In this document: positions 14,901 through 52,459 of the stretch, piece by piece
Layout of the letters: every line of letters begins with the position of its first letter
Numbering within the stretch: position 1 is the first letter of the stretch
From: Pyrinomonadaceae bacterium
GTDB lineage: Bacteria > Acidobacteriota > Blastocatellia > Pyrinomonadales > Pyrinomonadaceae
DNA length: 64,000 nucleotides
NCBI GenBank assembly: GCA_036403375.1
Contig: DASWRC010000188.1
Location: forward strand, 23,248-87,247
Reading direction: 5' to 3'
Notes under the pieces: generated by a model
Database searches by the model: none
Told to the model about the DNA's origin: nothing
Seen by the model: only the letters and a program-made list of their open reading frames with translations
Made by a program: the position numbers and the translations under genes

Positions 14901-17900
14901 CCGCTTTGGTTTTAATTTCACGGCTGATGGCTTCGGTTATCGCACCGTCAAGGGTTTTCCGGTTTTCGCGCGCTTTTCCGCTGTTGAGAGAATCGGGATT
15001 TTCGATTTCGGCGGTTAATTTTTCGCGCAGGCTCCAGAGCTTCGCCGTTATCGAACCGAGCGTGTCCGAAGCGTGAACCGTCTCGACGAAGGCGGCAATA
15101 TCGGCTGATTTTATATCGTTTTGAAACGGGTTCTGCGATAGATTTTCAAATGCCTCGCGGTATTTTTCGACCGCTTTTTCGGTTTCGATTTGTCTCAAAT
15201 TCTGCGCTTCGGCAAACTTATCCTGCAAAGTTTGCAATTTGGGCAGCGTCTCGACGGGAAGCTTTGCGCGTTCGGCTTCGGCTTCCGGGAATCTGCCGAG
15301 TTTGTCGAGGATTTGCGCCTTTTGTTTGACGTATTTTTTATCTTCGCCCGTCATTTCGAGCAGTTTATCGACGTTTTCGAGCGCGGCTTCGTAATTCGGC
15401 ATTTTCAGGTAAATTTCGCCGAGCGCGTCGTAAAGCTCCGCCATTTCCGGTTGGTTAAAAATCGCCGTCCGGTAATTTTCCGACGCGTTCGTCAAATCGC
15501 CTTCGGCTTCGTAAATGCGGGCTAGGACGACGTTCCAGCGATAATTTTTAAAGCCTTCAGCCGCGGTTTTCCGGTAATACGCGAGCAGTTTTTCCGCGCC
15601 GCCGTAACGCTTTGCAAAGCTGATTGCTTCGTCCGTATTTTCTTCATCTTCCGGGTCGCGGTTGATGATTTCGATATATTGTTCAGCGGCTGAATCGTAA
15701 TCTTTCATCCGCGTAAAGGCGGAAATCATTTTCTTTCGCAGCGTCGCGACAGTCCACGTAAAATCGAGCCGTTCCATATCCTGATTCGACAGCGCTTCGA
15801 GCGTCGCGGCAAAGGTTTTCAGGAGCGCCTCCGGGTTTTTCGTGCGCACGTAAACATCGGTCAATTCGGAAAAAACTTCCTCGTCGTTCGGATTTTCCGT
15901 TTGCAGGCTGACCAGAATCTGCCCGGCTTCACGCGGGCGATTCAGGGCGTTAAATCGCCCGGCGAGCTTGCGGTTGAATTGATATAAATATTCGCCGCGC
16001 GCTCTGCTCCGCGCCGCCTGCAAAACTTCGACCGACTTTTCGCGCAAGCCTAAATCCCAGTAAAAATTTTCCGCTTCTTTCAAAACGCCGTAATTTGCGG
16101 GGAATTTTTTGACCAAACCGGCAACGACGGCGGCAGATTTTTCCGTTTCGAAATTTTCGCGGAAATTTTCGGCGAGCTGCAAGCGGTAAGCTATCGCATC
16201 GCGCGGATTCGAGGCGGTTTCGACTAAACGAACGAGCGTTGCCTGAATCGCTTTTTCATCTTCCGCATTTCTGAAAAAACGTCTCGCTTCAAGCAGATTG
16301 CCGGCAGATTCTTCGCGTGCGACCTGTGTCAGAAGTATTCGGGCGGCGTCCGTTGGGCGGTTTAATTCGGACAGCAGCTCGGCGAAATTCAAAACCATCC
16401 GAAACTCGTTTTTCGCGGATTTGCGCTGCGCTTGAAACGCCGAATCGATTTGGCGCGCAAGGTTTGCTCGCGGGTAAAGCTGTTTCAAACGGCGTTTTGC
16501 GCTCATCGAGTCCGCTTCGATATCGTTTTCGTCGAGCGCCTTGACGTATTCCGCAATCGCACGGGAAGTCTCATTTTTCGCTTCCAGAATCGCGCCCGCC
16601 TGAAACGCGTAAAGGTTTTCATTAGCTGATTTTTCGCGCAGATTTTTGATGGTTTCGAGCGCGTCCGTAAACTGGAAATAATCCCAGAAAATCGTCGCGG
16701 TGTTTAAGTAAGATTCGTTTTCGCCCATTCCGGCAGAAACGATTTTTTCCCAATTCGCGCGCGCCGCCTTGTAATCGCCGAGTTCTGCCTGAAGCTCGCC
16801 GGCGGTCGTCAGCAGTTTTTCGTCAGCCGGAAAATTCTCCGCTCTCTTTTGCGCAAAGTTCGCCGCTTCGAGCTGCAGATTGCGACTTGTCTGCCCGAAA
16901 GAACGCGAAAGGGTGAGAAAATTTTCGGAAAATTCCGCATTGTTCGGGTAAAGCTGGTTCAGCTCGCGGTAAAACGCGTTTGCTTTTTCAAACTCGGAAA
17001 GCTGAGCCGAGGCGTCGGCGCGAAAGAGTTTGTAAGGCAGCGACGCGATTTCTTCCGAAGCACTCAAATCTTCCGATTTTTGCAAAAACGCGCGGATTTC
17101 GCCCTTCTCGGCTAAGTTTCTCAAAAACTCCTGACGGATTTCCGTCGATTCAAAATAATATTCGGCAAGCAGAGCGCGCCACTCGGTCTGCATATTTTTC
17201 CGGCTGTAATAACGAAGCAGCCCTCTGACGAACACGATGTTGTGCGGAAATCTTTTGTGCGCCAGACTGTAAAGACCGAAAAACAGATTACCGCCGAATC
17301 CTTTCGCATCCGAAACCTCTCCGCCGTCGATAAACTGCTTCAGATATTGCTCGGTTTCCGCGTCCGTGAATTTTGCCGCCGCCGCGCGCGAAAAATCTTC
17401 AAATTCTTCCGTGCGCCGGTTGCGAATCAGCCAGCGCGCAAAACGGTCTTTCCAGGTTTTCTGCGGAAAATTCTGCAGCGCTTTTTGGTAAACTTCAAAC
17501 TGTTTTTCGCCGAGATTCGTTTGCCCGAGCCACGCGAGCATCTGTTCGTAAAGTCTGGGTTCGTCCGGGTATTTTTCGGTTTCCCGCGCGTAAAGGTTCA
17601 AAATCTCCTGCGTTTTATTCTCGCGCGCGAGCGATGCGACAGCGCGCGCCAGCACGTCCGTATAAAAGATTTCGCCGCGCGCGGAACCGAGATAATTCGT
17701 GTATTTGTTCGGCTCGTTATAATAATAATCGCTTCGCTTTTTGTCGCCTGAAACATTTACTCCCTGATTTGAAGCCGGCGGATAGGAGAGAATCTGCGGC
17801 TTTTTCTCGGTTAAATCGCTCGTCTCCGCCGTTTCGGAAGCAGGAGGGAATTTTCGCCGCTCGGATTTGCCGAAAAAATCGAGCAGCTTTTGATAAATTT

Positions 17901-19443
17901 CGCGCTCTTTTCCGAATTGTTCGGTCGCGATAAAAGCGTCGGCAAGCTTCAGCGCCGCATCCGGGAAATCTTTGAAATCCGCGTATTTCTCTTCAAATTC
18001 GATCAAAGTTTGTTGGGCGATTTCAAGATTGCCGGTGGTTGTGTAAAGCCTCACGATGTCGAGATACATCTGCGCCAGCTCGGGCGCGTTCGGGTAATCC
18101 TTTTTGAACTCCTGAAAAATTCGGTAAGCGGCTGCGCGGTTGAAAAATTTGACGGCGCGCTCCTGCTTTTTATTAAATTCGCGGCGCGGATTAGTGTCCG
18201 AAAAAATCAGCGATAAAATTCCGGTCGTGATGCCGGGACGCACGTCCGATTTGACAACCGATTCATAGAAATCAAGATTTCCGCGCGTGAGGGCGAGTTT
18301 TTCGTAACCCGCATCGGACAATAATTCAAAAAGCTGGTAGAGGACTTTGCGCCGCAAATCGGGATTGTTTTTCGCCTCGAAATCGGTGCACAGCGTGTAA
18401 AGAAACCGCGAAGCCGAGTCGCCGTCGCCGGTTTCGATTAAAAACTGCGAAATCGTTAAAAGCTCGTCCGCCTGCCACGCCTTCGTCCCGGCGCGCGCGT
18501 TTTCGAGGTCTTGTACAATCGCGCCGAACTCGTCGCCTTCATTGCGCGCGAAATGAATCAGCCGAATCGCCGTCTGATAGTCCGCCGGATTTTGTCTGAA
18601 TTTCGCGCGAAGCCCGGATTCATAAGCGCGGTAACGGTCGTTTTCGCGCAGGAATTCATAAAATTTTTCGCTTTCCGAATCCGTCCAGAACGGGTTAAAA
18701 TCATCGTAATAAACCTTTTCGGCTTCCGAGATTTTACCTTGAAGGGTGAGAATCGAGATTTTCTTATCGAGCAGGTAATTTCTCTGTTCGGGAAATTTCG
18801 CGGCGGTTTCGTCAAGAATTCTGAGCGCTTCCGAATAATTTTTCTCTTCCGAAAGTTTATCGACGTATTCCAGAAAAACGGAAAAAGAACCGGCATCCCC
18901 GTCAATTATTTTCTGGTAAAACCCGGGCGCGAGATATTGTTTCAAGTCGTGTTTTTTCGCCGCGTAAATCAGGTTTGAAAACGCCGCGCCGCGTTTTTCC
19001 GCCGGTGCATTTTGCAAAATTTGTTCGAGTGCGGCGGCTTGTTTTTCAAACGCGCCGCGCCGCCCGTAAAAATCAGTCAGCGCCTGCAAATTTAGGGGTT
19101 CGACGGATTTAATTTCCGCTTCGGCTTCGTCGAAACGCCCGAGTTTTTCGTCCAAATCGGCGAGCTTTAAAAGGATTTCCGCATCGCCGGGATATTTTTC
19201 TAAAATTAGCGCCAGACGATTTCGCGCCTGTTCGGTCGGCAGCGGAACAATCGCGTCCGCGCCGAAAAACTCGGTTCTCGCAAAAAGCGCTTTTTCAATC
19301 GCCGCCGCTTTATCGTTTTCTTCCGCCGGGACCGATTTTTGCGAGCCGAAACCGTAAAAAAGAGCGCCGATTAAAACCGTCAGGCAACCGCTCAACTGAA
19401 TGGTTTGCCAGACATTCAACTTTTGAAAAACGCGGAATTTCAT
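11950..19443 (-). CDS. Giant TPR-repeat protein (2,497 aa) with N-terminal membrane anchor
   Basis: Uninterrupted 7.5-kb ORF. An N-terminal hydrophobic segment (LSGCLTVLIGALFYGF) is followed by many degenerate TPR-like A/Y/L-rich helical repeats. Confidence 0.7.
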   Translation of the reverse strand: MKFRVFQKLNVWQTIQLSGCLTVLIGALFYGFGSQKSVPAEENDKAAAIEKALFARTEFFGADAIVPLPTEQARNRLALILEKYPGDAEILLKLADLDEKLGRFDEAEAEIKSVEPLNLQALTDFYGRRGAFEKQAAALEQILQNAPAEKRGAAFSNLIYAAKKHDLKQYLAPGFYQKIIDGDAGSFSVFLEYVDKLSEEKNYSEALRILDETAAKFPEQRNYLLDKKISILTLQGKISEAEKVYYDDFNPFWTDSESEKFYEFLRENDRYRAYESGLRAKFRQNPADYQTAIRLIHFARNEGDEFGAIVQDLENARAGTKAWQADELLTISQFLIETGDGDSASRFLYTLCTDFEAKNNPDLRRKVLYQLFELLSDAGYEKLALTRGNLDFYESVVKSDVRPGITTGILSLIFSDTNPRREFNKKQERAVKFFNRAAAYRIFQEFKKDYPNAPELAQMYLDIVRLYTTTGNLEIAQQTLIEFEEKYADFKDFPDAALKLADAFIATEQFGKEREIYQKLLDFFGKSERRKFPPASETAETSDLTEKKPQILSYPPASNQGVNVSGDKKRSDYYYNEPNKYTNYLGSARGEIFYTDVLARAVASLARENKTQEILNLYARETEKYPDEPRLYEQMLAWLGQTNLGEKQFEVYQKALQNFPQKTWKDRFARWLIRNRRTEEFEDFSRAAAAKFTDAETEQYLKQFIDGGEVSDAKGFGGNLFFGLYSLAHKRFPHNIVFVRGLLRYYSRKNMQTEWRALLAEYYFESTEIRQEFLRNLAEKGEIRAFLQKSEDLSASEEIASLPYKLFRADASAQLSEFEKANAFYRELNQLYPNNAEFSENFLTLSRSFGQTSRNLQLEAANFAQKRAENFPADEKLLTTAGELQAELGDYKAARANWEKIVSAGMGENESYLNTATIFWDYFQFTDALETIKNLREKSANENLYAFQAGAILEAKNETSRAIAEYVKALDENDIEADSMSAKRRLKQLYPRANLARQIDSAFQAQRKSAKNEFRMVLNFAELLSELNRPTDAARILLTQVAREESAGNLLEARRFFRNAEDEKAIQATLVRLVETASNPRDAIAYRLQLAENFRENFETEKSAAVVAGLVKKFPANYGVLKEAENFYWDLGLREKSVEVLQAARSRARGEYLYQFNRKLAGRFNALNRPREAGQILVSLQTENPNDEEVFSELTDVYVRTKNPEALLKTFAATLEALSNQDMERLDFTWTVATLRKKMISAFTRMKDYDSAAEQYIEIINRDPEDEENTDEAISFAKRYGGAEKLLAYYRKTAAEGFKNYRWNVVLARIYEAEGDLTNASENYRTAIFNQPEMAELYDALGEIYLKMPNYEAALENVDKLLEMTGEDKKYVKQKAQILDKLGRFPEAEAERAKLPVETLPKLQTLQDKFAEAQNLRQIETEKAVEKYREAFENLSQNPFQNDIKSADIAAFVETVHASDTLGSITAKLWSLREKLTAEIENPDSLNSGKARENRKTLDGAITEAISREIKTKADGNEILALRADIDARLTAAEKSDSSTLSLLQNLISRCGFDDLQEKILVTAIENDSNAENQSQNLRAAVAFYQKRGNYRRILEILENDLAAKPLEFIRIYTDSARAFGEEDKELVGLQSIFAKQTTDDEFTKRYLEILYAKNRAELENLARNSNAHRLQIINFLLAKKETDLASAAIKNSAFSESWKLARAAETAFRLEKRAAENDADFAGALQISTIGELVKQNQDAKPQLTGADWFKFSNLYGQWLFAAGQPEKAEIFLAGKIENQPKSADEQFKLGYFYLEQKAFAPALEHFQIAAALRPEDKSFLPFLGAALFQMDEREKAAATWIKIIEGDETNAADALVYLKTLSEFGQSEKARRDVKPIFLAELKSLEGDEPEATANENLKEFTRRLAKSFTDERAKTAFFIEICRAVPKNTVLPEILIDESLVAKKDFGEFYRLLISRSEGFEIYEQIYEFVSISEESFETDDAETLYDSKNGFKVEEPENKKLEWQRKYLEYLLERGETGAAAKQISEIEDSLKNRYPRPVWLRLAGFRAALRQNQTTLLLSKMMKFSGVTVSPDEQIAVLPNLERLNEAVAILKDERRDDFAVNLQEAFFARQIALGQYDDADFAALAKIELQKGNAADALKILKLMTDFSADESPAQIDSMPIFAAYSNKENLPVETRSAIDKPESLRLAAEILNAFGFAAEAVLYRESLRDASPGDAANKIELARLYANMQRSDEAARTLLEIITNKRFDRKARWQSLLVLAETVGADENFMKKILAENQSLQSTDAELWAALQAFAARQSGNQTEAINLLQANDFTFEFRFLKAIFEKTAGRDEESLADLAAVSEAAGELEDIFGFYEAPPVLQQINLYLETGKPRAALDLAKNSGILKAVVTTDFERNQDAGIKPLAARAAELKFGEMRELLEKLRAAAETTGDFSAAIEFENAKSKFFETPEDVKNSEVRIENLRQKLSERLANQANSFVIDEKVLSDY

Positions 19444-28428: not shown

Positions 28429-29790
28429 TTATTTGTTGATTTTGTTTGAAGTCTCTTTTAATTTTTTCTGCGCTTCAGTTTTATTAACGATTTTGCCTTC
28501 GGGGTCGAGCGCGATGGCTTTTTCATAGGCTTCCTTCGCCTTTGTATATTCGCGCTGGCTCTGGTAAACGTCCGCCAGCTCGTAATAGGCAATCGCCGAA
28601 TTCGGGTCGGCGTCAATCGCTTTTTGATATGCGTCAATCGCGCTCACGTCGCGTTTCAATTTCTCGTAACCGTTGCCGATGCTGATAAAAACTTCCGCTT
28701 TCGGCATTTCCTTGGCGACCGCTTCGAGTTCTTTGATAGCTTCCTCGATTTGCTTGGTTTCGAGCATCAGAGTGCCGAGCCAAAACCTTGTTTCGAGCGT
28801 ATTGTAGCCGAATTGAATCGCGTTTTTGTAAGCCGCAATCGCTTCTTTTTCGCGACCGAGGATGCGCTGCGTGTCGCCGAGCTTTTTATAGCCCATCGCC
28901 ATTTTCGGGTCAATTTGCAGCGCTTTCAGGTAAAGCTTTTGCGCGTCGGCATATTTCTGGTTGGCAAAATACGTGTTGCCGAGTCCGTAAAACGGCAGCG
29001 CCGAAGTCGGCATAAATTCCTGCGATTTGTTGAAGGCGGTGAAAGCGTTCATGTATTCGCCTTTGGCAAGCTCGATTTGACCGGACGCGAACCAGCGCTG
29101 CGCTTCGATCTGAACCGCCGTGTAGCCTTGCAGATGTCCGCCCTGCGCGGCTTGGAAAACCACCTGCCAATCGTCCGGAGTGACCGTATCGGTAGTTGCC
29201 GGATTAGCGTAATTTTCTAAGATTTTCTTGACCTGCCCGCTTGCTTCGACCATTTTTTGAACGTCGGATTTTTCTTCCGTCTCGACGGGTTTTTCGATTG
29301 TCGGAGCAGATTTCGGAACGAATTCCTCGAACAGTTTAAAGGTCGTCTGGTCGGCACTGACGCTGATTCTTTTGCTGGACAGCAGCACCTGGCGTTTATT
29401 TTTTGCCATTAAAAGATATTCGCCCGCCGCCAGTTTCTTCGACAGCCGGAGTTTGTCGTCCGTCACGCCGATAGTTTTTTCGTTCAGGAAAACTTCGACC
29501 GCCGGTTGATTGGCGACAAACGTCACGTCGAGATAAGTTTTGGGCGTCGCTTTTTTTACGGCTGCCGCGTTTTTATTGGTCGAGGAATTGTTTTTCGCAA
29601 CGGTGGTTTTCGGCTTTTTCTTGGATTTTTTCTCTTGTGCGGTTTTTTTCTGGTTGCCATAGACGGTGTCGCGCAAATCGTCCTGACCGAAGACCGCGAA
29701 AACATTTGCACCAAAAGCCAAAACGAGCGCAATAACGGATGTTTGAATCAGTTTACGGGTAATTTTCGAAAGCGTATTTGTTCTAAACAT
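28429..29790 (-). CDS. Membrane-anchored PEGA-like + TPR repeat protein
   Basis: Track ORF runs to 29832. The ATG at complement 29788-29790 has GGAGGA upstream and gives MFRTNTLSKITRKLIQTSVIALVLAFGANVFA. A PEGA-like beta segment (VTFVANQPAVEVFLNEKTIGVTD) is followed by about 6 TPR units. Confidence 0.55.
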   Translation of the reverse strand: MFRTNTLSKITRKLIQTSVIALVLAFGANVFAVFGQDDLRDTVYGNQKKTAQEKKSKKKPKTTVAKNNSSTNKNAAAVKKATPKTYLDVTFVANQPAVEVFLNEKTIGVTDDKLRLSKKLAAGEYLLMAKNKRQVLLSSKRISVSADQTTFKLFEEFVPKSAPTIEKPVETEEKSDVQKMVEASGQVKKILENYANPATTDTVTPDDWQVVFQAAQGGHLQGYTAVQIEAQRWFASGQIELAKGEYMNAFTAFNKSQEFMPTSALPFYGLGNTYFANQKYADAQKLYLKALQIDPKMAMGYKKLGDTQRILGREKEAIAAYKNAIQFGYNTLETRFWLGTLMLETKQIEEAIKELEAVAKEMPKAEVFISIGNGYEKLKRDVSAIDAYQKAIDADPNSAIAYYELADVYQSQREYTKAKEAYEKAIALDPEGKIVNKTEAQKKLKETSNKINK

Positions 29791-29850
29791 CAGGAAATTT
29801 ATCCTCCTCGTTGTGCTGGTGTTTCTCATCATACATCAAAATCTGCCGGG

Positions 29851-30840
29851 CTACCTGCGCCGCTCGACGACATACCGGAATCCGACCGAACCGACGCGCG
29901 TGTTTTCGGGAATTTCGTAGCGCGCCTGCGCCGAAATCTGCGCCCGGGGCGTTTGCGCCGAACCGCCCTTGACGACCCGCAGAACCTGCCCGTCGGCGAG
30001 CGCCTTTTTTACTTCCTCGTCGGTCACTTCCTCGTTTTTGCCGACGCGGTCCGCGGTCCATTCCCAGACGTTGCCCGCCATATCGAACGCGCCGAACGGC
30101 GAGCGGTTGAGCGGGAAACTTTTGACTGGGGCGACTTTGCCGCCCGATTCTTTCGAGTTCGCAGCTTCTTTTCTCCAATCATTGCCCCACGGATATTTAT
30201 TTCCGCCGCTGCCGCGCGCCGCCAGCTCCCATTCGGCTTCCGAAGGCAGGCGGACGGGCAGACCGATTTTTTTCTCCAGCCACTTGCAAAACTCGACGGC
30301 GTCCGCATAGGAAACGTTCGTCACCGGAAAGTTTTCCGTGCGGGCGGGAAATTCGTTTTCCTTCCAGCCCGGCGGCGCGGCGTGATTGGTCGCCTTAAGA
30401 AATTCGGCGTATTCGGTGTTGGTTACTTCCGTTTCGGCAATCAAGAAATCTTTGACAATCGCGCGCTGAATCGGCAATTTCGTTTCGCCGCCGCCGAGTG
30501 CGATTTCACCGCCCGGAACTTCGAGGACGCCCGCCGGCAGCGGTTTTTCGTTAACGAGCGGAGAAGGCGGATTCGGCTCCGTATTGGTCGTCGGCGCGGC
30601 GTCGGTTTTAAGGGCGATTTCCGGCTTTTCGGGAACGTTTGACGGCAGGCTCGTTTCCGCCGTCGGAGTGATTTTATACCGGTCGCGCGAACCTAAAACC
30701 AACCAGCTGCCGGTTCCTAAAACGACGGCAATCGTAAAACAAACCAAACCGGCGACGGCGAACGGCAAAAGACGCAAATCATCCTCGGTTCGGACCGTCG
30801 GGCGCGCCGTCTGAATTATTTGTTCCTTTTTCTCCGTCAT
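29851..30840 (-). CDS. Formylglycine-generating-enzyme (SUMF1/FGE-sulfatase) domain protein, membrane anchored
   Basis: Track ORF starts at a TTG (30948). The ATG at 30840 gives MTEKKEQ, followed by a TM segment. FGE-fold motifs are present: IAETEVTNTEYAEFL, YPWGNDW, GNVWEWTAD, RVVKGGS, VGFRYV. Confidence 0.75.
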   Translation of the reverse strand: MTEKKEQIIQTARPTVRTEDDLRLLPFAVAGLVCFTIAVVLGTGSWLVLGSRDRYKITPTAETSLPSNVPEKPEIALKTDAAPTTNTEPNPPSPLVNEKPLPAGVLEVPGGEIALGGGETKLPIQRAIVKDFLIAETEVTNTEYAEFLKATNHAAPPGWKENEFPARTENFPVTNVSYADAVEFCKWLEKKIGLPVRLPSEAEWELAARGSGGNKYPWGNDWRKEAANSKESGGKVAPVKSFPLNRSPFGAFDMAGNVWEWTADRVGKNEEVTDEEVKKALADGQVLRVVKGGSAQTPRAQISAQARYEIPENTRVGSVGFRYVVERRR

Positions 30841-31006
30841 AACAATCTTTAAAATTTCATCCGGCGCGCTTCTCGGCGCGAATGAGTCGGAAATTTTGTT
30901 TGGCTTGTTACCGGCTTTTTTCAAACAAGAATTTGTTTCCAGTAACAACGATAATAATATTTTAACTTATCTCAGAGCAACCCTTTCGCGAATTTCTACG
31001 CGCCTT

Positions 31007-31495
31007 TTACGAATTCTCGCGCCGTCCGTGTAGAATTGCGCCGATTTCGTCGCTGATTTTTTGTTCCCGCCGCGATTTCTCCTTTTGCTCAGCCGCCCGC
31101 CAATTCGCCTTGTGAACTTCGATGGATTTCAAATCGCGCGCCGATTCAGTTAATTTTTCGCGCGCCGTTTCGAGTTCCTTTTCGGCTTTCGCGACCGCTT
31201 GAATCTGTTTTTCGACCGCCGCCTGTAAATCGATTTCGAGCGCCCGCAAATCGTTCAGAAAATTTTGATGCGCGAGGATGCCGCGCGCCTGTATGCCGCC
31301 GATTAGTTCTTCGTTCATCTGTGCCTGGGCTTTACTTTGCTGCTCGTAGCAGGCTTGCAGTTTTTTCTGGCGGCGATTTAATTCTTCTTCCGCCGCCTGC
31401 ATCTGCTCAAGCCTGAGCGCGACCCGGCGCGCCGCTTCTTCGCGCGCGCGGCTGCGGATTCCCAGGACAGTCTCCAAACGATATTTTTTCGTCAC
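31007..31495 (-). CDS. sctO: FliJ/SctO-like coiled-coil stalk protein
   Basis: 162 aa with a GTG start, predicted all-helical. The N-terminus YRLETVLGIRSRAREEAARRVALRLEQ matches the usual FliJ/YscO opening. Size is as expected. Confidence 0.5.
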   Translation of the reverse strand: MTKKYRLETVLGIRSRAREEAARRVALRLEQMQAAEEELNRRQKKLQACYEQQSKAQAQMNEELIGGIQARGILAHQNFLNDLRALEIDLQAAVEKQIQAVAKAEKELETAREKLTESARDLKSIEVHKANWRAAEQKEKSRREQKISDEIGAILHGRRENS

Positions 31496-31690: not shown

Positions 31691-32419
31691 GTGGCTGAAC
31701 AAAATCCCGAAAACCCGATTGCCGCGCAGACGGCGTTTACTGACCGTGACGAGCTTGTCGAACGCTATCGCCCGTACGTCTTCTCGATCGCCAAACAGGT
31801 TTCGCAGAGCTTTCCGGTGCGCATCGATTTTGAAGAGCTGGTCGGTTACGGGATGGTCGGACTGCTCGAAGCCGCCGAGCGCTACGACCCGCGCCGCAAG
31901 GTTTCGTTCGTGACGTTTTCATATTACCGCATCAAGGGCGCGATTTTCGACGGGCTGCGGCAGATGGGAATCCTGACGCGCACGCCGAACGAGGCGTGGG
32001 TGCGCCGCGAATCGGTGCTCAACGATTTGGTGCAGACGGCGTCCGCCGACGAGATGGAAACGCCGGCGGGTTCGGTCGACGACGAAATCGGCGCGGTCGA
32101 AAAGTTTGTCGATTCCCTGATTCCGGCGTATTTGCTTTCACTCAGCGAAGAAAACGCGCCCGACCTTGCCGACTCGCGCGAGCTGCCGAATGTTTCGGTC
32201 GAGTTCTCGGAAACAATTAAAATCGTCCGCGAAACCGTTCGCGAGCTGCCGGAAAAAGAACGCGAAATTATCGAATCGCTTTATTTCCGTCATCTTTCCA
32301 CCACCGAGCTTGCCAAAAAAATGGGCGTCAATAAATCGTGGGTTTCGCGTCTGCACTCAAAAGCCGTCAATCGCCTGCGCCAGCGGCTCGCGATGATTGG
32401 CGTGCTTTCAAATCAATAA
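31691..32419 (+). CDS. fliA: FliA/WhiG-type (sigma-28 family) RNA polymerase sigma factor
   Basis: 242 aa with a GTG start. Regions 2.1-2.4 are LVERYRPYVFSIAKQV ... FEELVGYGMVGLLEAAERYDPRRKVSFVTFSYYRIKGAIFDGLR. The region 4.2 HTH is LSTTELAKKMGVNKSWVSRLHSKAV. Confidence 0.8.
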   Translation: MAEQNPENPIAAQTAFTDRDELVERYRPYVFSIAKQVSQSFPVRIDFEELVGYGMVGLLEAAERYDPRRKVSFVTFSYYRIKGAIFDGLRQMGILTRTPNEAWVRRESVLNDLVQTASADEMETPAGSVDDEIGAVEKFVDSLIPAYLLSLSEENAPDLADSRELPNVSVEFSETIKIVRETVRELPEKEREIIESLYFRHLSTTELAKKMGVNKSWVSRLHSKAVNRLRQRLAMIGVLSNQ

Positions 32420-32550
32420 ATCCCGACCAATTTTAATTTTCTTCGGAATAACCGGGCGCTGATAATTTTGTCCGCTTTTTCAGTTGTCGGCTGTCCGTTT
32501 TCGGCATTCGGGCAGTTAATTTGTTCAAACCATAAAATTTATAGTTCGCA

Positions 32551-32578
32551 GGAAACTTTTCCGGGAACCTGCCGATAA
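32551..32578 (+). promoter_or_regulatory. Sigma-28 (FliA)-type promoter upstream of the 640-aa toxin-like gene
   Basis: GGAAACTTT-tccgggaacct-GCCGATAA. The -35-like GAAACTTT is at 32552-32559, followed by an 11-nt spacer and the -10-like GCCGATAA at 32571-32578. Enterobacterial class-3 consensus is TAAAGTTT-N11-GCCGATAA. Confidence 0.6.
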
Positions 32579-32678
32579 TTTCAACAACAGACGAGAAAAA
32601 ATCGTTGATTCAGTCCCGGGTCCCGGCGCAAAAATTCCGGTTATTAAACTGACTTGAGACCTGAGATTTAGAAGAATT

Positions 32679-34601
32679 ATGGCAAACCCCGTAAATAACA
32701 GTGGAATTAACGCGCAGGTCAGCGTTGGCGGGGCTTTGAAGGCGAATGTCAACGCCGGCGGCGCGGCGCGGCGGATTTCCGATACGCAAAGCAAAGACAT
32801 TTTTGAGAGCGTCAACGAAAATTACACGAAAAATCCGAATCATTCGCGCCCCGCAGAACAAGCCGGCGACGCCGACCAATCGCATCAAAATCAAGTAAAG
32901 GCAGGTAATAATTCCGCGCCGCCCGGTTTGGCAAAAGACGTTCAGGAGGAGCACGCTGCGCCGCCTGCTCCAAATAAACGCACGAAAAATGCGGACATCG
33001 GCGAAGGCGCGGCGCTTCTGAAAACGGCGGCGCGCGGCGAAAACGGCGACGTGAAAAGTTCGCGTCAGGGAATTTTAAACGGTCGCGGGCAGCAAAAATC
33101 GCAAGTTCCGCCGGAACCGGTCGAAACGCCGCCGATTGTGATTCTGCCGACCGACACGAAAGGCAATCAAACAACTATCGAGACGCCGCCGATTATCGCG
33201 CCGCCGAACGGCAACGGCAATCACGGCGGACCGCACAACAACGCGCCGGGTTCCACCGTGCGCAATCCGCGGATAAATAATCAGAACGCTTTCGGCACTC
33301 GGTTTTCGGTCGATTTAAGCTTGCGCGCGAACGGCAATCAGCCCACGGGCGTGATTCGCAATGTCGTCAACCAGATTTTGCGGCAGAACGACGTTTACCT
33401 CAGCCATAACACGCTAAATCGTCTGATAAGCAGCCGGACTTTCAATAATTCGACGCGCGGCTTTAATCATCCGGCGGTGAATTTGCCGCGCGAAGTCAAT
33501 CAACTATTCCAAACGGTGAGCCGCCGCGCGTTGTCTCTGCTCGATAATTCACGGCAGAATCACAAGCTGATTCACGAAATTTCAAAGGAAATCGGACGCG
33601 AATTACGGGAAAATGTTCAAGCCTCCAAAGCGGCAATTTTTAAAACGGCGGATTTAAGAGCGCTGCATTTCAAGCATCTGAATATCAATGAAAAAATGGA
33701 AGTCGCCGTCGATTTGCTGCCGCAGCATCTTCCTGAAAAAGCGCTTGCGCCCATTCAACACCACCAGCCGAGAGAAGTTCTCGACGCCTTTTTGCTCGCG
33801 CGCGGGCTGATTGTTCCGAGCGAAAAAGCGTCGGAAATCAGAAACCTCTTGGCGGCAAAATCGAGCGTTCTGCCGCCTGCAATTTCGATGACGGCGCTGC
33901 GCGATGTCGGTCAACTGGTGAAAACTCTGATTGCCGATACAGCGGCGGCAAAAACGACCGCGAATCTCGATTCGGCAGTGCAGAAATTCGTCAAAATCCT
34001 GCTCGCCAACAACGAGCTGGGCGTTTTGCTTGCCACTATCAGTCTCGTCGCGCAGACGACCAATGAGAGCGGTTTGGTGAGCCGCTCGCTCGCGCTGGCG
34101 CAGATTTATGAGCTTATCAACCAGCTGATTCCGGCGGGCGAGAAGGCTCTCGGCGAAGCCGCACCGGAAAAAAATATTCTGCAAAAGGAACGAAATATTT
34201 TTCACGCCGCCCCCGCGCTTTCAGCCGTCGATGACACGGATGAATCGAGGGCGCAGATAAATAAACTTCACGCCCAAGAGGCGACGGCGGGAAGCCTGCG
34301 CCAATTTCTGGAATTCAACCCCGCGCTGGTTTACGATAAATCGGCGTCCGCTTTTCACAATCCGGACGACGCGCGGCAGGCGCGCGATAATTTTATCAAT
34401 CTTCATCACGACGACCTCCTCGCCTGGCTCGAAAGCGGAAATCACCGGTTCGTCAAAGATTTCGATTTCGACAAACCGGTCGGCGTGGTCGTCGAGCGCG
34501 GCAGCGAGTCGGTTTTTACGGCAACGACGGCGCGTTTCGTGCTCGTTCGCGACGGCTCGGTGCAGGGCTGGCATTTTCTCAAATCATTTCTGGTAAAATA
34601 A
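32679..34601 (+). CDS. Putative T3SS-secreted polymorphic-toxin-like protein (disordered N-terminus, unassigned C-terminal domain)
   Basis: 640 aa with no Sec signal. The first ~210 aa are N/P/G/Q-rich and disordered. A sigma-28-type promoter lies upstream, and a CdiI-like immunity gene follows 18 bp downstream. The C-terminus ends ...ARFVLVRDGSVQGWHFLKSFLVK. Confidence 0.4.
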   Translation: MANPVNNSGINAQVSVGGALKANVNAGGAARRISDTQSKDIFESVNENYTKNPNHSRPAEQAGDADQSHQNQVKAGNNSAPPGLAKDVQEEHAAPPAPNKRTKNADIGEGAALLKTAARGENGDVKSSRQGILNGRGQQKSQVPPEPVETPPIVILPTDTKGNQTTIETPPIIAPPNGNGNHGGPHNNAPGSTVRNPRINNQNAFGTRFSVDLSLRANGNQPTGVIRNVVNQILRQNDVYLSHNTLNRLISSRTFNNSTRGFNHPAVNLPREVNQLFQTVSRRALSLLDNSRQNHKLIHEISKEIGRELRENVQASKAAIFKTADLRALHFKHLNINEKMEVAVDLLPQHLPEKALAPIQHHQPREVLDAFLLARGLIVPSEKASEIRNLLAAKSSVLPPAISMTALRDVGQLVKTLIADTAAAKTTANLDSAVQKFVKILLANNELGVLLATISLVAQTTNESGLVSRSLALAQIYELINQLIPAGEKALGEAAPEKNILQKERNIFHAAPALSAVDDTDESRAQINKLHAQEATAGSLRQFLEFNPALVYDKSASAFHNPDDARQARDNFINLHHDDLLAWLESGNHRFVKDFDFDKPVGVVVERGSESVFTATTARFVLVRDGSVQGWHFLKSFLVK

Positions 34602-34619
34602 ATCTCACCACAAAAAAAG

Positions 34620-34973
34620 GTGAGTAATTACCGGTTCAAATTTCCAGAGCTTTACCAATTCTTCGGCGGATATTTTTATCAGGGCTGGTCGGCGGATTAT
34701 CGCTGGGAATCGACAAAACCGGATTTCGCGGCGGTCGTCCGGCATTTCAAAGCCGTCAATCCGCTCCCGGCAGTGAACCGCGTCAGAATAGAATTAGCCG
34801 AATTGCTTGCTTTGTCGCTCGATGATACGGAATTAAACGCGGCGTTGAACGAACTGGGCAGCAATTTTTACGTGCCCGCCGAAAAATTAACAAATGTGCA
34901 ATGGCTCGCTAAAATCCTCGAAATACTCGACGAATCGCCGACCAAATCACGGGTTTTAAGAGAGCTCCGGTAA
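34620..34973 (+). CDS. CdiI-like (YFHQDW-type) toxin immunity protein
   Basis: 117 aa with a GTG start. FPELYQFFGGYFYQGW, then ...IELAELLALSLDDTELNAALNELGSNFYVPAEKLTNVQWLAKILEIL, matches my recollection of the contact-dependent-inhibition immunity family. That family has the pattern FFGGYFHQDW ... ELxxLL ... LG ... WL. Confidence 0.6.
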   Translation: MSNYRFKFPELYQFFGGYFYQGWSADYRWESTKPDFAAVVRHFKAVNPLPAVNRVRIELAELLALSLDDTELNAALNELGSNFYVPAEKLTNVQWLAKILEILDESPTKSRVLRELR

Positions 34974-35163: not shown

Positions 35164-35565
35164 TTAACCGGGCGAAATCAAATCAGCCGCGTCGAGCAGT
35201 GCCTGTGCCGTCTGGCTGTGCGGCGAATCCGGGCTGCCGCTGATGATTTCCCTTAACTCCGATTCGGCGCGGCTGCGCTGGCGACCGAAAAGCAAAGCTT
35301 CGGCATAATGAACGCGGGCGTAAAGGCTGTCCGGATTCTGTTCGAGCGCCTTTTCGCAAATCTCTTCCGCCGCGCTGAAATCGCCCATTTGCAGAAAAAC
35401 CGTGCCCAGCCCGACCTGCGGAACGTCCGATTCGGGCATAAACTCCATCACACCGCGAAAAATCGCTTCCGCTTGTTCGAATTTGGCGGCTTCGCGCAGG
35501 ATGTAACCCGTTTCAAGCATGACGCGCAATTCTTCGCTGCTGACCGGAATCTCGGCTATCGTCAT
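35164..35565 (-). CDS. TPR-type (class II, LcrH/SycD-like) type III secretion chaperone
   Basis: 133 aa with three TPR units. It lies directly downstream of a putative secreted needle-family protein in the same transcription unit. Confidence 0.55.
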   Translation of the reverse strand: MTIAEIPVSSEELRVMLETGYILREAAKFEQAEAIFRGVMEFMPESDVPQVGLGTVFLQMGDFSAAEEICEKALEQNPDSLYARVHYAEALLFGRQRSRAESELREIISGSPDSPHSQTAQALLDAADLISPG

Positions 35566-35665
35566 AAAAAATTAATTCGGCAAAAGTTAAGACGAAATGG
35601 CATTGTTTTTTTTTGTAGATAAACAATTGAACTTTTGCCGAAACTTAAAAAATCTTTTTTGGAAT

Positions 35666-36130
35666 TTACGACTTGATATTGTTGACCGCCGACATTTCAG
35701 AGTCGTGGCGTGTTTTCAAAAGATTTGAAACGGTCGTAAATTCCTGCGCCTGCATCCCGACGCGATGCTGAACGCTGATCAGCTGCATCGAATTCTGCTG
35801 CTGCTGGTTAAGCATCTGGTTTTGCTGGCGCTGCTGCAAAGAACTGGAAATCTGGTTATAACGCTGCATTTCCTCAAACTGGCGCTGCTGTTCCATCAAG
35901 GCGGTGTACGAGCCGGAGGACGCGCCGCCGCTGCCGCCGATGACGTTGCCGAGAATTCCGCCCAAGCCCGGCGCGACGAAATTCAGTGCCGTGCTCGCGA
36001 CGCCGCCGAGAACCTTGAGGAATTTATTGGGTTCCTTTGTTCTTTGCTGGACATCTATTTCCGGAAAAACGGTCGCCACCGGCGGAAGGGTTTCGGTTTT
36101 CACCGGCGTAATCATCGTGTCGTCTGCCAT
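35666..36130 (-). CDS. SctF-family paralogue with Gly-rich N-terminal extension (filament/translocator candidate)
   Basis: 154 aa. The C-terminal 20 aa (SNLLKTRHDSEMSAVNNIKS) share 10/20 ungapped identities with the C-terminus of the 71-aa SctF-like protein at 60357. A Gly-rich hydrophobic block (VLGGVASTALNFVAPGLGGILGNVIGGSGG) and a Q-rich helix are present. AAGGAG RBS and a sigma-28-type promoter lie upstream. Confidence 0.45.
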   Translation of the reverse strand: MADDTMITPVKTETLPPVATVFPEIDVQQRTKEPNKFLKVLGGVASTALNFVAPGLGGILGNVIGGSGGASSGSYTALMEQQRQFEEMQRYNQISSSLQQRQQNQMLNQQQQNSMQLISVQHRVGMQAQEFTTVSNLLKTRHDSEMSAVNNIKS

Positions 36131-36213
36131 AACGCAAATTACCTCTCCTTATAAAAAGTTAAAAACGCGTGCACCGAAGGTCTAAGTCAAAAGATTTCTT
36201 TACTTAAACAACA

Positions 36214-36241
36214 TTATCGTCCGAGTTAAAAAAAAGTTTCC
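36214..36241 (-). promoter_or_regulatory. Sigma-28-type promoter upstream of the SctF-paralogue/TPR-chaperone unit
   Basis: The reverse strand reads GGAAACTTT-ttttaactcg-GACGATAA with an 11-nt spacer, about 85 nt upstream of the start at 36130. Confidence 0.55.
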
Positions 36242-36259
36242 TGATTTTTTTGAGAAATA

Positions 36260-36550
36260 TTATTTTTGCGCGGTGTGCCGCATTTTTTGAAGATTTTGCA
36301 GGAATTCGAGCGTCGTTTCGACCGCCTTTAAGGCGCGCGTCGCCCGCGTCGCTTCGTCGCGCGAGCCGTACCGGACGATTCTTTCGAGACTCGCGCGCGT
36401 TTCGCCGAGCCGCGCGCAGAATTCGTCAAACCGCCGCGTGTCGCCGCTGCTGAAAAGCTCGCCGACGGACGGGTAATCGAATAATTTCGATAAATCGTGA
36501 GCGCCGTCCGGGGCGCTCGTTAAATCATTTATATTTTTTTGGTCCGGCAT
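36260..36550 (-). CDS. Small hypothetical protein (96 aa)
   Basis: Track ORF starts at a TTG (36565). The first ATG gives MPDQKNINDL. No motif recognised and coding status is moderate. Confidence 0.4.
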   Translation of the reverse strand: MPDQKNINDLTSAPDGAHDLSKLFDYPSVGELFSSGDTRRFDEFCARLGETRASLERIVRYGSRDEATRATRALKAVETTLEFLQNLQKMRHTAQK

Positions 36551-36675
36551 ATTTTTAGAGTCCAATAATCGGGATTTAAGACCCCTCGAACCGGGCGTCT
36601 GCTGTCTGCCGAAACCCGCTATATGATAATATCTTTTATAACAGAATTATTTGTCAAAGGTTTCGATAAGTTTGA

Positions 36676-37716
36676 ATGGCGAAAAGATTACTGGTCAAAA
36701 GACGGAAGGAAATTCTTCCCGAACTCACGCAGGAAATTCCCGCAAACGGCATCATCACCGTCGGGAACGATTCTTCGGCGACCATCGAACTGAAAGACGA
36801 AAAAATCGCGCCCGAACAATTCGTAATCGTTTGTGAAGACGACACGATGACCCTGCTCTGCCGCACGGACGGCACTGCCGTGAACGGCGAAAATTTGCCG
36901 CAGGGCGCGCTGCACCATCTCAAATTCGGCGATGAAATCAAGATTGACGGCTACACGCTGACGCCTGAATCGGAAGGAAACGGCGACCGGCGAGCGGCGG
37001 AAACGACTGCTTATTCGGCAGAAATTCAGGAAAATCTGCCGACCCGCCCGGCGCCCGGCGGAATTCACACCACCGGAATGACGGAAAAAACCGAGCGCAG
37101 CCTGAGCGACGTTCTGGAAAATCTTCGTTCGGAAGAAAAGTTTTACTTTTTAATCAAGGCGTCGGACGGCACCGAGAACCGCGTCTATGTCGAATCGGAA
37201 GAGCTGTGGCTCGGCTGGACGGAAACGGGCGAGTGCGTGATTTTGCCCGAGGGCGGCGACGTTGAAATACCGCGTGCCCAAATTCGCAAAGATTGGAGCG
37301 GCGTCGTGCTTTATCCGGTGAAGAAGGGCGACGTTTGGCTCAACGACGAAACTCTGGGGGAACCGCGCCGTCTGAAAAACGACGATAAAATCTTTCTCCA
37401 ATCAAAAGAAACCGCGCGGCTTAATCTCGAAACCGTCATCAAATTTCACGAACCGACCGCACTTCTGATTCTCGATTCGATTCTGCCGAAAGAACTGCCG
37501 CCGCCGATTCTGCTCGATGAAACCGCAACCGATGCGGGCGCGCGCGAAATTGACGAGTCGGATTTGATTGACACCGGCAAAATTTCTTCAGCAGCCGTAA
37601 AACCGGCGCGCAAAGGAAATATTTTCGGGTATTTTACGGTAACCGAAATAATTATTATGGCAATCGGCACGCTGATTACGGCGGCGGTTATTTATATGAT
37701 TCTGGAACTGTATTAA
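36676..37716 (+). CDS. Double-FHA-domain, C-terminally membrane-anchored protein (SctD-position protein without periplasmic domain)
   Basis: 346 aa. FHA-like block 1 is ITVGNDSSATIELKDEKIAPEQFVIVCEDDTMTLLCRTDGTAVNGENL...GDEIKIDGYTL. A second FHA-like block lies at ~170-245. The only TM segment (IIIMAIGTLITAAVIYMILELY) is at the extreme C-terminus. The gene is immediately upstream of sctV. Confidence 0.6.
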   Translation: MAKRLLVKRRKEILPELTQEIPANGIITVGNDSSATIELKDEKIAPEQFVIVCEDDTMTLLCRTDGTAVNGENLPQGALHHLKFGDEIKIDGYTLTPESEGNGDRRAAETTAYSAEIQENLPTRPAPGGIHTTGMTEKTERSLSDVLENLRSEEKFYFLIKASDGTENRVYVESEELWLGWTETGECVILPEGGDVEIPRAQIRKDWSGVVLYPVKKGDVWLNDETLGEPRRLKNDDKIFLQSKETARLNLETVIKFHEPTALLILDSILPKELPPPILLDETATDAGAREIDESDLIDTGKISSAAVKPARKGNIFGYFTVTEIIIMAIGTLITAAVIYMILELY

Positions 37717-37800
37717 ACCTTCCGCAACAAAACCTTTTAATAATCGTGAAAGAATTGTTAAAATTAGCCTGATAAAGTTTAAATAAAGGATTTTTGGGAA

Positions 37801-50715: not shown

Positions 50716-51792
50716 ATGTCGGCAGGCACAGGAGAAAAAACCGAGCAACCAACTGATAAGCGGCTTCGGGACGCCCGGAAAAAAGGTCAGGTCGCGAAAA
50801 GTCAGGATTTAACCGGCGCGCTTTTATTGATTGCGGCGGTCGCCGTCGTCTGGCTCGTCGGCGGCTACATCGGCGGAATTTTGCAGGGAACGGTGAAAGA
50901 CCAAATCGAATTTGCCGCGACCTTCAAGGGGCAATTTACGTCGGAAACCGCCTACGCCGTGCTGTGGCGCGGGATGAGCGGGATGTTCTGGGCTTTGACG
51001 CCGATTTTTGTCGTCGTGCCGGTTTTTGCCTTTTTGGGAAATTACCTGCAAATCGGGACGATTTTTTCGTTTGAATCAATCGCGCCGAATTTTAATAAAT
51101 TAAATCCAGTCGAAGGCTTCAAGCAAAAATTCCTAAAATCGCGCCCGTATATCGAGCTCGGCAAAACGATTTTCAAAATGCTGATAACCGCGTCGGTTGC
51201 CGGTTACGTGCTCTGGGCGGCGCGCGAGGACATTGTCCGATTAATAGAAAAACCGCCGGACGCGGCGGCGGCTTACACGTTCTCGCTGGTTTTGGAAATC
51301 GGTCTGAAAATCGGTCTGGCGTTTTTAATCCTCGGCGGCGCGGATTATTTTCTGCAAAGATTTCTGCACCGGCAGGATATGAAAATGACCAAGCACGAGG
51401 TCCGGGAAGAATACAAGGAAACCGAGGGAAACCCGCTGATTAAAGCGCAGAGACGCGCGCTGCACCGCGAAATTTTATCGCAGAGTCTGGCGGCGGCAGT
51501 CCGCGATGCCGACGTCGTAATGGCAAACCCGACGCACGTTGCGGTCGCGCTGAAATACGAGCGCGGAAAGGCAAACGCGCCGATGGTGACGGCAAAAGGC
51601 GCCGATTTGATGGCGGCGCAGATTCGCCAAATCGCCCGGGAATCGGGTGTTCCCGTAAAACGCGACATACCGCTGGCGCGCGCGCTTTACGAACTCGAAG
51701 TCGAGCAGGAAATTCCCGAAGAACTCTACGAGGCGGTCGCGGTTGTTCTGCAATGGGTTTATTCGATGGCGGAAGAACGGGCGGAAGTTTAA
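50716..51792 (+). CDS. sctU: Type III secretion autoprotease/substrate-switch protein SctU (FlhB/YscU family)
   Basis: 358 aa. It opens with the canonical GEKTEQPTDKRLRDARKKGQVAKSQDL and has four TM segments. The NPTH autocleavage site sits in VVMANPTHVAVALKY. Confidence 0.95.
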   Translation: MSAGTGEKTEQPTDKRLRDARKKGQVAKSQDLTGALLLIAAVAVVWLVGGYIGGILQGTVKDQIEFAATFKGQFTSETAYAVLWRGMSGMFWALTPIFVVVPVFAFLGNYLQIGTIFSFESIAPNFNKLNPVEGFKQKFLKSRPYIELGKTIFKMLITASVAGYVLWAAREDIVRLIEKPPDAAAAYTFSLVLEIGLKIGLAFLILGGADYFLQRFLHRQDMKMTKHEVREEYKETEGNPLIKAQRRALHREILSQSLAAAVRDADVVMANPTHVAVALKYERGKANAPMVTAKGADLMAAQIRQIARESGVPVKRDIPLARALYELEVEQEIPEELYEAVAVVLQWVYSMAEERAEV

Positions 51793-51808
51793 TTTGTAAT
51801 CCGAAGGT

Positions 51809-52459
51809 ATGGCAGATATTAAAAACGTCAATCGGAGCGGCGGAAACGAAATCGGCAGTTTGACGAATAATCAGATTGCCGAAGGGGAAGTTCCGCGCGT
51901 CCCGCAGTCAGGCGCGAAGACCGAACAGACGCAGTTTCCGGTCGGGCAGCCCGTCGAGACGCGCCCACCGTCCGACGCGACCGCGATTTTGAATGATGCG
52001 GTTATCGGGCGCGACACGACGCAGCTCGAAGCCGCCAAACAGTTAAGCGCGCTGGGCGGCGTTTCGGCGACCGACCGTCTTTTGGGCTTGGATTTGCGCC
52101 CGACGATGACCGGCGTTCTGGCAGCGCCGCCCGGAAACGCCGAGTTTCTGCGGCATCTTTCACCGCAGGCGCGCCGCACGATTATGCGGAAAATGCTCAA
52201 CAAACAGCGCGAAAGAATGCGCCGGCTGGCGCGCTACCTGCGCGACCGCCGCGACGAGTCGGCGGGCGAGGAGAGCGGCGGCGAAGAGGGCGAAAGCTTT
52301 CTGGAAGTAATCTCGGAGCCGGTCGAATTAGACCGCTCAAAACTCGTGCGGGCGACGCACGAGCTTGAAAAAGCCGCGCGAATGTTGAATATTTTAGACG
52401 AAATGCTGGCGATGCAGGATTATACAATCAGCCAAATCGGGACGTTTACGCAGGGATAA
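51809..52459 (+). CDS. Hypothetical 216-aa protein between sctU and sctQ
   Basis: ATG start with a GAAGG RBS. The protein is disordered and charged with a helical C-terminus. No motif recognised. Confidence 0.4.
   Translation: MADIKNVNRSGGNEIGSLTNNQIAEGEVPRVPQSGAKTEQTQFPVGQPVETRPPSDATAILNDAVIGRDTTQLEAAKQLSALGGVSATDRLLGLDLRPTMTGVLAAPPGNAEFLRHLSPQARRTIMRKMLNKQRERMRRLARYLRDRRDESAGEESGGEEGESFLEVISEPVELDRSKLVRATHELEKAARMLNILDEMLAMQDYTISQIGTFTQG

Follow-up and report, generated by a model that had tools for sequence, protein, structure and literature searches.

A predicted RNase A-fold toxin and a CdiI_2-type immunity protein form a conserved gene pair in a type III secretion locus of Pyrinomonadaceae

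Here we describe a gene pair on a 64,000-nucleotide (nt) stretch of a Pyrinomonadaceae genome (GenBank assembly GCA_036403375.1, contig DASWRC010000188.1, positions 23,248 to 87,247 of the forward strand; hereafter the window, in whose numbering coordinates are given). A protein of 640 amino acids (aa), ending in a domain of the CdiA-CT (C-terminal toxin region, CT) RNase A-like family, is followed after an 18-nt gap and in one common reading frame by a 117-aa protein of the CdiI_2 immunity family, the two standing among genes for a secretion system of type III (T3SS). An earlier note on this DNA, drawn up from the letters alone, had proposed a toxin-like protein with a CdiI-type immunity gene in a T3SS cluster, and had given the toxin a disordered N-terminus and a compact C-terminal module of about 100 aa. 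Its two open reading frames (ORFs), 32679..34601 and 34620..34973, and the gap between them are exact, the peptides it quoted are present, and the results below uphold each of these assignments. The 640-aa protein is 100% identical to the NCBI entry ‘RNase A-like domain-containing protein [Pyrinomonadaceae bacterium]’, which is encoded on a 91-kb metagenome-assembled contig. The pair is laid out as follows.

32679..34601, forward strand: toxin gene (ATG start, 640 aa)
32679..33290, forward strand: residues 1-204 of the toxin gene, putative secretion/chaperone-binding region (MANPVNN start, disordered and N/A/G/P-rich, two PI[IV]xxP motifs)
33291..34178, forward strand: residues 205-500, conserved all-α carrier domain (predicted local distance difference test score, pLDDT, ~85-95)
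34293..34601, forward strand: residues 539-640 plus stop codon, RNase A-fold, CdiA-CT(Ykris)-like domain (PF18431, fold match to 5E3E)
34620..34973, forward strand: CdiI_2-type immunity gene (GTG start, 117 aa)

The 640-aa protein falls into five parts, namely the MANPVNN start, a disordered region, an all-α domain, a variable linker and the C-terminal domain. Residues 1 to ~204 are rich in Asn (12.9%), Ala (11.4%), Gly (10.5%) and Pro (10%), and AlphaFold2 gives residues 1-34 and 56-203 a pLDDT below 50, marking them as disordered; mean pairwise identity among homologs in this region is 30-41%, and reading the N-terminal sequence revealed no hydrophobic Sec-type signal. Two short motifs lie ~20 residues apart within the disordered N-terminus, PIVILP at residues 152-157 (33132..33149) and PIIAPP at residues 171-176 (33189..33206). 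The PI[IV]xxP pattern occurs in 34 of 59 homologs, against an expectation of ~0.05 per shuffled protein, and it resembles P/VxLxxP, the binding motif of class II T3SS chaperones.

Judged by sequence and fold searches, the all-α carrier domain that follows is new. A Pfam scan of 14 members gave no match common to more than two of them, a Foldseek search against the PDB gave no convincing fold match, and a profile search of 1.84 billion representative proteins returned just 32 representatives. One helix of the domain, at residues 440-458, is moderately hydrophobic (Kyte-Doolittle 1.75), carries an invariant Asn445 and Glu446, and is modelled within the helical bundle. A translocator identity for the domain, which would rest on gene position and on this one hydrophobic helix with its invariant Asn and Glu, was considered and not adopted.

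The C-terminal domain is the best-conserved region of the protein (71% mean pairwise identity). Residues 554-631 match PF18431 (RNAse_A_bac, CdiA-CT RNase A-like toxin) in Pfam at 35.3 bits against a cutoff of 27 (E 2.3e-8), and the profile of the toxin family matches 5e3e_B in the PDB (E 4.4e-7). An AlphaFold2 model of residues 520-640, built from a 20-sequence alignment, reaches a pLDDT of 91.4, and Foldseek superposes it on 5e3e_D with template modelling (TM) scores of 0.74/0.79, a root-mean-square deviation of 1.8 Å and E 1.2e-7 over 105 aligned columns (105/113 residues). The 117-aa protein matches PF18593 (CdiI_2) in Pfam at 50.2 bits against a cutoff of 26.7 (E 4.5e-13), the match spanning profile positions 1-89 of 91, and in the PDB it matches the immunity chain 5e3e_A (E 4.9e-4). 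The earlier note would have counted the lack of a significant immunity-family match as a refutation, and such a match is present. The two ORFs thereby match two chains (B and A) of one crystal complex, 5E3E from Yersinia kristensenii. The family matches are well outside what chance would give, and together with the 5E3E-chain and AlphaFold2/Foldseek matches they firmly establish that both proteins are homologous to members of an already known toxin/immunity pair.

Elsewhere, PF18431 toxins are antibacterial effectors of the secretion systems of types V, VI and VII (T5SS, T6SS and T7SS; PMC5435912). Our literature searches gave no type III case of an RNase A-fold CdiA-CT/CdiI pair, the founding paper (PMC5435912) having T5SS, T6SS and T7SS cases, and searches on T3SSs in Blastocatellia or Pyrinomonadaceae, or on T3SS-linked polymorphic toxins, brought up no relevant work. 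Both families, toxin and immunity, already appear by name in the NCBI annotations of these metagenome-assembled genomes (MAGs); new here are the T3SS linkage, the carrier domain, the fixed pair under purifying selection and the altered active-site residues.

By their family matches, the surrounding genes are those of a non-flagellar T3SS, with SctV, J, L, N, O, D, U, Q, R and T recognised. SctV (TIGR01399, 703 bits) and SctN (643 bits) score above their NCBIfam cutoffs, SctU reaches 353 bits and SctQ 80 bits, and the locus also encodes a protein whose domain resembles the FliK C-terminus. Scans of the window gave no genes for a flagellar rod, hook, filament or motor. The needle operon, which adjoins the immunity gene, keeps its gene order in related loci. 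Its needle-like protein of 154 aa is about twice the usual length of SctF.

31007..31495, reverse strand: SctO (YscO-like/FliJ) gene (PF16789, E 8.9e-21)
35164..36565, reverse strand: needle operon in yscE-F-G order (weak NCBIfam matches, all below cutoffs)
36260..36565, reverse strand: 101-aa ORF of the needle operon, in the yscE position
35666..36130, reverse strand: 154-aa ORF with a needle/HrpA-like C-terminus, in the yscF position
35164..35565, reverse strand: TPR133, an SctY/CdsG/LcrH-like protein of 133 aa, in the yscG position
36676..43885, forward strand: T3SS core with SctD-like (FHA/YscD-like), SctV, SctJ, a 336-aa ORF, SctL/FliH and SctN (Pfam/NCBIfam)
50716..56477, forward strand: export-gate genes SctU, SctQ, FliO-like, SctR and SctT (family matches)

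The pair is further tied to this apparatus by its promoter. Directly upstream of the toxin operon lies a gene for a sigma factor of the σ28 family, whose best NCBIfam match is TIGR02479 (FliA_WhiG) at 129 bits, below the cutoff. The same gene occupies the same place in 20 of 23 distinct related loci, the other three beginning within or just before the toxin gene. Four promoters of the corresponding type are found in the window.

31691..32419, forward strand: FliA/WhiG-like (σ28-family) sigma gene (Pfam Sigma70_r2, r4), directly upstream of the toxin operon
32552..32578, forward strand: σ28-type promoter, GAAACTTT-N11-GCCGATAA, 100 nt upstream of the toxin start codon
36214..36240, reverse strand: σ28-type promoter variant, GAAACTTT-N11-GACGATAA, upstream of the needle-like gene, read from the sequence
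46229..46255, reverse strand: σ28-type promoter, 37 nt upstream of a 742-aa ORF
59275..59301, forward strand: σ28-type promoter, upstream of a 152-aa ORF

The general element, GAAAC[TA][TA]T-N11-GCCGATAA (that is, GAAACWWT-N11-GCCGATAA), spans 27 nt and is essentially the σ28 (FliA) consensus. Sites of this architecture number 34 in ~478 kb (the window plus all fetched loci), 30 of them outside the window in L001-L027, and they stand ~57-110 nt before the DUF1521/toxin operon, the needle-like gene or some other ORF, with two exceptions, in L027 and before the 742-aa ORF of the window, where the distance is 37 nt. Orthologs of the needle-gene promoter in related loci carry the exact GCCGATAA, and within the window GCCGATAA is enriched (14 observed against 4 expected; none of 100 shuffles reached 14). 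Of the related loci in which the two regions were recovered, nearly all have this architecture before the needle-like gene as well as before the DUF1521-toxin operon. Because of this common promoter architecture, we infer that the toxin operon and the needle gene belong to one small regulon within the locus, together with the 742-aa and 152-aa ORFs of the window. Among sequence-level arguments, the sharing of a promoter is the strongest for the toxin being a putative T3SS substrate.

When each GTDB species was scanned through one genome, 21 loci came to light, every one in a MAG assigned to Pyrinomonadaceae, Pyrinomonadales or unclassified Acidobacteriota, and in these the pair sits at the same place in the T3SS locus, downstream of the FliA-like sigma gene. 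Where the flank suffices, the order runs from an FGE-sulfatase-domain gene through SctO, the FliA-like sigma factor, DUF1521 and an LcrH/SycD-like TPR gene (~165 aa) to the toxin, CdiI, the needle operon and SctD/V/J/.../N. DUF1521 is the family of the T3SS-secreted proteins NopE1 and NopE2 (PMC6506597), and the best NCBIfam match of the TPR protein encoded upstream of the toxin in relatives is the SycD/LcrH chaperone family, at 69.9 bits, below the equivalog cutoff of 104.8. The immunity gene is never lost: in each related locus that extends far enough, it is the next gene downstream of the toxin. Immunity homologs (at least 120, among the matches listed) are 62-97% identical.

Several observations show that the pair is under purifying selection and not polymorphic. 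The same C-terminal domain is found in all 59 full-length homologs, the median dN/dS (ratio of nonsynonymous to synonymous substitution rates) is 0.20 for the CT and 0.18 for the immunity gene, there are no indels or length variation, and the window contains no orphan toxin or immunity cassettes and no further copies. Across loci, the divergence of the CT and that of the immunity gene are correlated (r 0.82), which shared phylogeny alone could give.

The carrier domain leads to a different setting. All close members among its 32 proteins have the same C-terminus, and the N-terminal region of an outgroup, P0210-P0212, is homologous to it (hhalign 97%, E 7e-11). In this outgroup the shared region ends at WNEEIVAGMR..GEDL and is followed by differing C-termini in P0211 and P0212. 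P0211 (L005, 3799..5645) ends in a PF18431 domain of canonical type (84 bits), in which the catalytic His and Thr are both present, and is followed by a CdiI_2 gene; P0212 (L006, 1858..3995) has an unassigned C-terminus unrelated to that of P0211, followed by a different small overlapping ORF (176 aa). By these features the outgroup behaves like a polymorphic toxin, and the Pyrinomonadaceae family looks like a polymorphic-toxin lineage turned fixed core pair of a T3SS locus. A metagenome scan for further outgroup members gave no confirmed locus.

We favour, with moderate confidence, the reading that the 640-aa protein is a T3SS-exported RNase effector kept inactive in its producer by the immunity protein. 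In such a scheme, the FliA-like sigma factor of the locus would transcribe the toxin-immunity operon, the needle gene and other presumed substrates from σ28-type promoters, and in the cytoplasm of the producer the 117-aa CdiI_2 protein would bind over the nuclease cleft and render the toxin harmless. The polar, disordered N-terminus would then direct the toxin to the export gate, probably helped in most relatives by the LcrH/SycD-like TPR protein encoded just upstream, possibly through the PI[IV]xxP repeats, and the SctN ATPase would strip off the immunity protein and unfold the toxin for export. In the recipient cell, whether bacterial prey or a eukaryote, the domain would cleave RNA. The analysis shows the homology and fold of both proteins, their T3SS setting, the conserved synteny, the common promoter and the purifying selection; secretion by the T3SS, binding of the two proteins to one another, RNase activity and the target are what we propose on that basis. 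The target organism could be bacterial or equally eukaryotic by analogy with known systems: plant or coral hosts are where NopE-like proteins act, Ribocin, which has the RNase A fold, is aimed at eukaryotic ribosomes and not at bacteria, and cleaves them (PMC13189344), and when Myxococcus kills prey by contact, a T3SS-like system without a needle is involved (PMC12075869).

The earlier note had taken the presence of a self-immunity gene to imply a toxin active against the producer or its kin. Protection of the producer fits our findings, and attack on kin fits less well with a fixed, non-polymorphic pair with a dN/dS of ~0.2. Because the pair is fixed and under purifying selection, and the immunity protein is near-uniform across the family, the immunity gene is most plausibly explained by protection of the producer before export, better than by attack on kin.

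Several findings weigh against an exported RNase. The activity of the Y. kristensenii toxin depends in part on His175, Arg186, Thr276 and Tyr278, with Arg186 as the proposed transition-state stabiliser, and across aligned homologs His175 and Thr276 are invariant and Tyr278 is often Phe (Batot et al. 2017, PMC5435912). We mapped these residues onto 59 family sequences through the canonical members P0189 and P0211 (motifs GHTIE[KR]HVGKSE ... GWHILTSFP). The His175 equivalent, which lies where the N-terminal helix is poorly conserved, is His in 18 of the 59 and otherwise Gln, Lys, Gly, Ser or others, the window protein having Ala532 there with His531 adjacent. Arg186 is replaced by Phe543 (58 of 59), with an Arg/Lys541 two residues upstream that canonical members have too, and Thr276 by Lys635 (57 Lys, 2 Arg); Tyr278 corresponds to Phe637 (54 of 59), an accepted substitution. 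Because the catalytic or invariant residues of the wider family are not conserved here, RNase activity of the C-terminal domain is plausible, not assured.

A different set of residues is invariant in all 59 sequences. These are His589-Arg590 (in SGNHRFV), a pair replaced by Lys-Gly in the Yersinia toxin and by different residues again in canonical members; His632, which is common to canonical P0189 and P0211; and Arg607, Arg619 and Arg624-Asp625, equivalent to Arg247, Arg259 and Arg264-Asp265 of the Yersinia toxin. From this pattern we consider it probable that the catalytic groups have been relocated and the active site rewired around His589, Arg590, His632 and Lys635, the three-dimensional position of His589 and Arg590 relative to the cleft being placed by inference. 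A nuclease fold that keeps its inhibitor while its reported catalytic residues are replaced would be useful for studying active-site plasticity.

The secretion apparatus and the setting of the pair add to these points. No secretin gene (SctC) was found in Pfam scans of the 64-kb window or of the 5.7 kb beyond the window start (L028), and for this reason delivery across the outer membrane is not established. The missing secretin recalls the secretin-less ‘Myxo’ type, an ancestral non-flagellar T3SS (NF-T3SS) described by Abby & Rocha (PMC3459982). The DUF1521 gene and the LcrH-like TPR gene that stand upstream of the toxin in almost every related locus are both missing from the window in tblastn searches, and L020 lacks them too. 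At 32420..32678 of the window, the DUF1521 promoter and 5′ untranslated region are fused to the spacer that separates the TPR and toxin genes elsewhere (compared with L007, L008 and L018 at ~8100-10040), a junction which indicates that a clean deletion removed the two genes in the window genome; its toxin gene now has the σ28-type promoter immediately before it. Every carrier is a MAG from an uncultured organism. Finally, the ~13-kb flank of outgroup gene P0211 (3.8 kb upstream, 10 kb downstream) holds no T3SS genes, and the carrier domain may therefore not be specific to T3SSs.

The replaced residues also bear on a first alternative, which we judge unlikely, namely that the fold has been repurposed: nuclease activity would be lost, the 640-aa protein would be a structural or regulatory part of the T3SS (a tip, a translocator-like protein or a gatekeeper), and the CdiI-like protein would be its dedicated chaperone. 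Such a role would accommodate the loss of the canonical His175 and Thr276, the standing of the pair as a fixed, single-copy, non-polymorphic core of the locus beside the needle operon, and the moderately hydrophobic helix at residues 440-458 of the α-helical middle domain. It would also suit the place of the toxin gene in relatives, after an LcrH/SycD-like class II chaperone gene, which is the usual position of a translocator. Against it, the conserved residues are of catalytic type (His589, Arg590, His632, Lys635 and the three Arg common with the Y. kristensenii toxin), the entire fold is retained at 1.8 Å, the hydrophobic helix has its invariant Asn445 and Glu446 and lies inside the modelled bundle, and the middle domain is unlike any known T3SS component.

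It is quite improbable, in our estimate, that the pair is an interbacterial, kin-discriminating polymorphic toxin whose immunity gene protects siblings. The antibacterial role of PF18431 toxins in T5SS, T6SS and T7SS (PMC5435912), the outgroup proteins P0211 and P0212 with their differing C-termini, each followed by its own small gene, and the contact-dependent killing by the needleless Myxococcus system (PMC12075869) all speak for such a function. The toxin itself shows no polymorphism, however, with the same domain in 59 of 59; dN/dS is ~0.2 with no indels; and the window lacks orphan toxin/immunity cassettes. Moreover, if immunity proteins as similar as these (62-97% identical among the matches listed) cross-protect, the pair cannot discriminate kin, though it may still kill unrelated bacteria. 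That the protein is not a T3SS substrate at all, and is instead a cytoplasmic toxin-antitoxin (TA)-like module or one released by another route and merely linked to the T3SS island, is very improbable: an RNase with a tight inhibitor is formally a TA-like pair, P0211 and its CdiI_2 gene lack T3SS genes in their ~13-kb flank and the window yielded no secretin, but TA toxins do not resemble this 640-aa protein, whose N-terminus is disordered over ~200 residues and whose carrier domain takes up ~300 more, and its place in the locus is kept across 21 genomes, its σ28-type promoter is common with the needle gene and its neighbours include chaperone-like and NopE-like genes.

The exported-effector reading can be set beside several known systems. 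The closest in fold is CdiA-CT/CdiI of Y. kristensenii ATCC 33638 (5E3E, PMC5435912), with the same toxin fold and the same immunity family directly downstream. In contrast to Y. kristensenii CdiA, however, there is no CdiB/CdiA two-partner system here (Pfam scans of the window gave no CdiB-type gene) and the 640-aa protein has no haemagglutinin repeats (no filamentous haemagglutinin Pfam domains) and no VENN motif; its carrier is a 300-residue α-helical domain with a disordered N-terminus, in a T3SS locus. The family here has not kept the His175, Arg186 and Thr276 of the Yersinia toxin, has a new invariant His589-Arg590, and forms a non-polymorphic pair. T7SS nuclease toxins, which have immunity and chaperone partners, and T6SS Rhs/PF18431 effectors (PMC5435912) share the same modular logic of an N-terminal carrier, a C-terminal nuclease and a downstream immunity gene, and in both cases, as would hold here by that logic, the immunity partner must come off before or during export; they differ in their secretion machine and in the C-terminal variability that is missing here.

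Within type III systems, AvrRxo1 of Xanthomonas oryzae pv. oryzicola is an effector that is toxic to its producer and neutralised by the co-encoded antitoxin/chaperone Arc1 (PMC4938570). The pair described here likewise consists of a T3SS-linked, would-be self-toxic protein and a small neutralising partner encoded immediately downstream. AvrRxo1, however, is a zeta-toxin-like kinase whose secretion and host target are shown, whereas the present protein has an RNase A fold and a role that is predicted from its genes. Ribocin (RbcN) of Pseudomonas aeruginosa has an RNase A fold too, with CdiA-CT(Ykris) as its closest structure; unlike the toxin here, it is stand-alone and keeps His/Lys/Thr/Tyr at the canonical sites, and the available text of PMC13189344 mentions no immunity partner or T3SS link. 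The needleless T3SS* of Myxococcus xanthus, which works with the Kil Tad-like pilus in prey killing (PMC12075869 and PMC10433427), is likewise a T3SS of a free-living soil bacterium perhaps acting on microbes, and the present locus, like the ‘Myxo’-type NF-T3SS (PMC3459982), is possibly without a secretin. Unlike the M. xanthus system, it has a needle-like gene with YscE/G-like partners, and in the text available on that system no toxin/immunity effector is named.

To our knowledge, type III effectors are generally thought of as host-manipulating and without immunity genes. A bolder proposal than the exported-effector reading, which we consider unlikely, is that the T3SS is an antimicrobial and possibly predatory weapon whose conserved cargo is a self-carried RNase with its active site moved to a new His-Arg pair. 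In that case no earlier type III system would have been shown to deliver a nuclease of the CdiA type along with its cognate immunity protein, and the helical carrier would represent a new T3SS-linked module for toxin delivery, with polymorphic relatives elsewhere. A fixed, co-regulated pair in an abundant family of soil Acidobacteria offers an assayable candidate cargo for an uncharacterised environmental T3SS, and with it a handle on whether environmental T3SSs target bacteria or eukaryotes.

Two further ORFs of the window lie behind σ28-type promoters of their own. The 742-aa ORF (43963..46191, reverse strand) has no family match in Pfam or NCBIfam and is a candidate for an additional T3SS substrate; a homolog follows SctN in L007. 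The glycine-rich 152-aa protein (MFGIGKLLGSVAGGLLDKIGLGG..., 59396..59854, forward strand) has a homolog with the same promoter in L015. Its gene is flanked by LcrH/SycD-like TPR chaperone genes (58679..59155, reverse strand, and 59870..60340, forward strand), and the protein and these TPR genes may be another substrate/chaperone set, perhaps translocator-like.

At the border of the T3SS locus, a 2497-aa ORF (11950..19443, reverse strand) with only scattered TPR matches adjoins a VIT/VWA protein and a Reg_prop histidine kinase/LuxR response-regulator pair. A gene with an FGE-sulfatase domain (29851..30948, reverse strand) and one for a 467-aa TPR protein (28429..29832, reverse strand) separate the FliK-C-like gene from SctO. 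Both are kept in all three loci whose called genes reach that far (L001, L003 and L004), an unusual conserved passenger in a T3SS locus.

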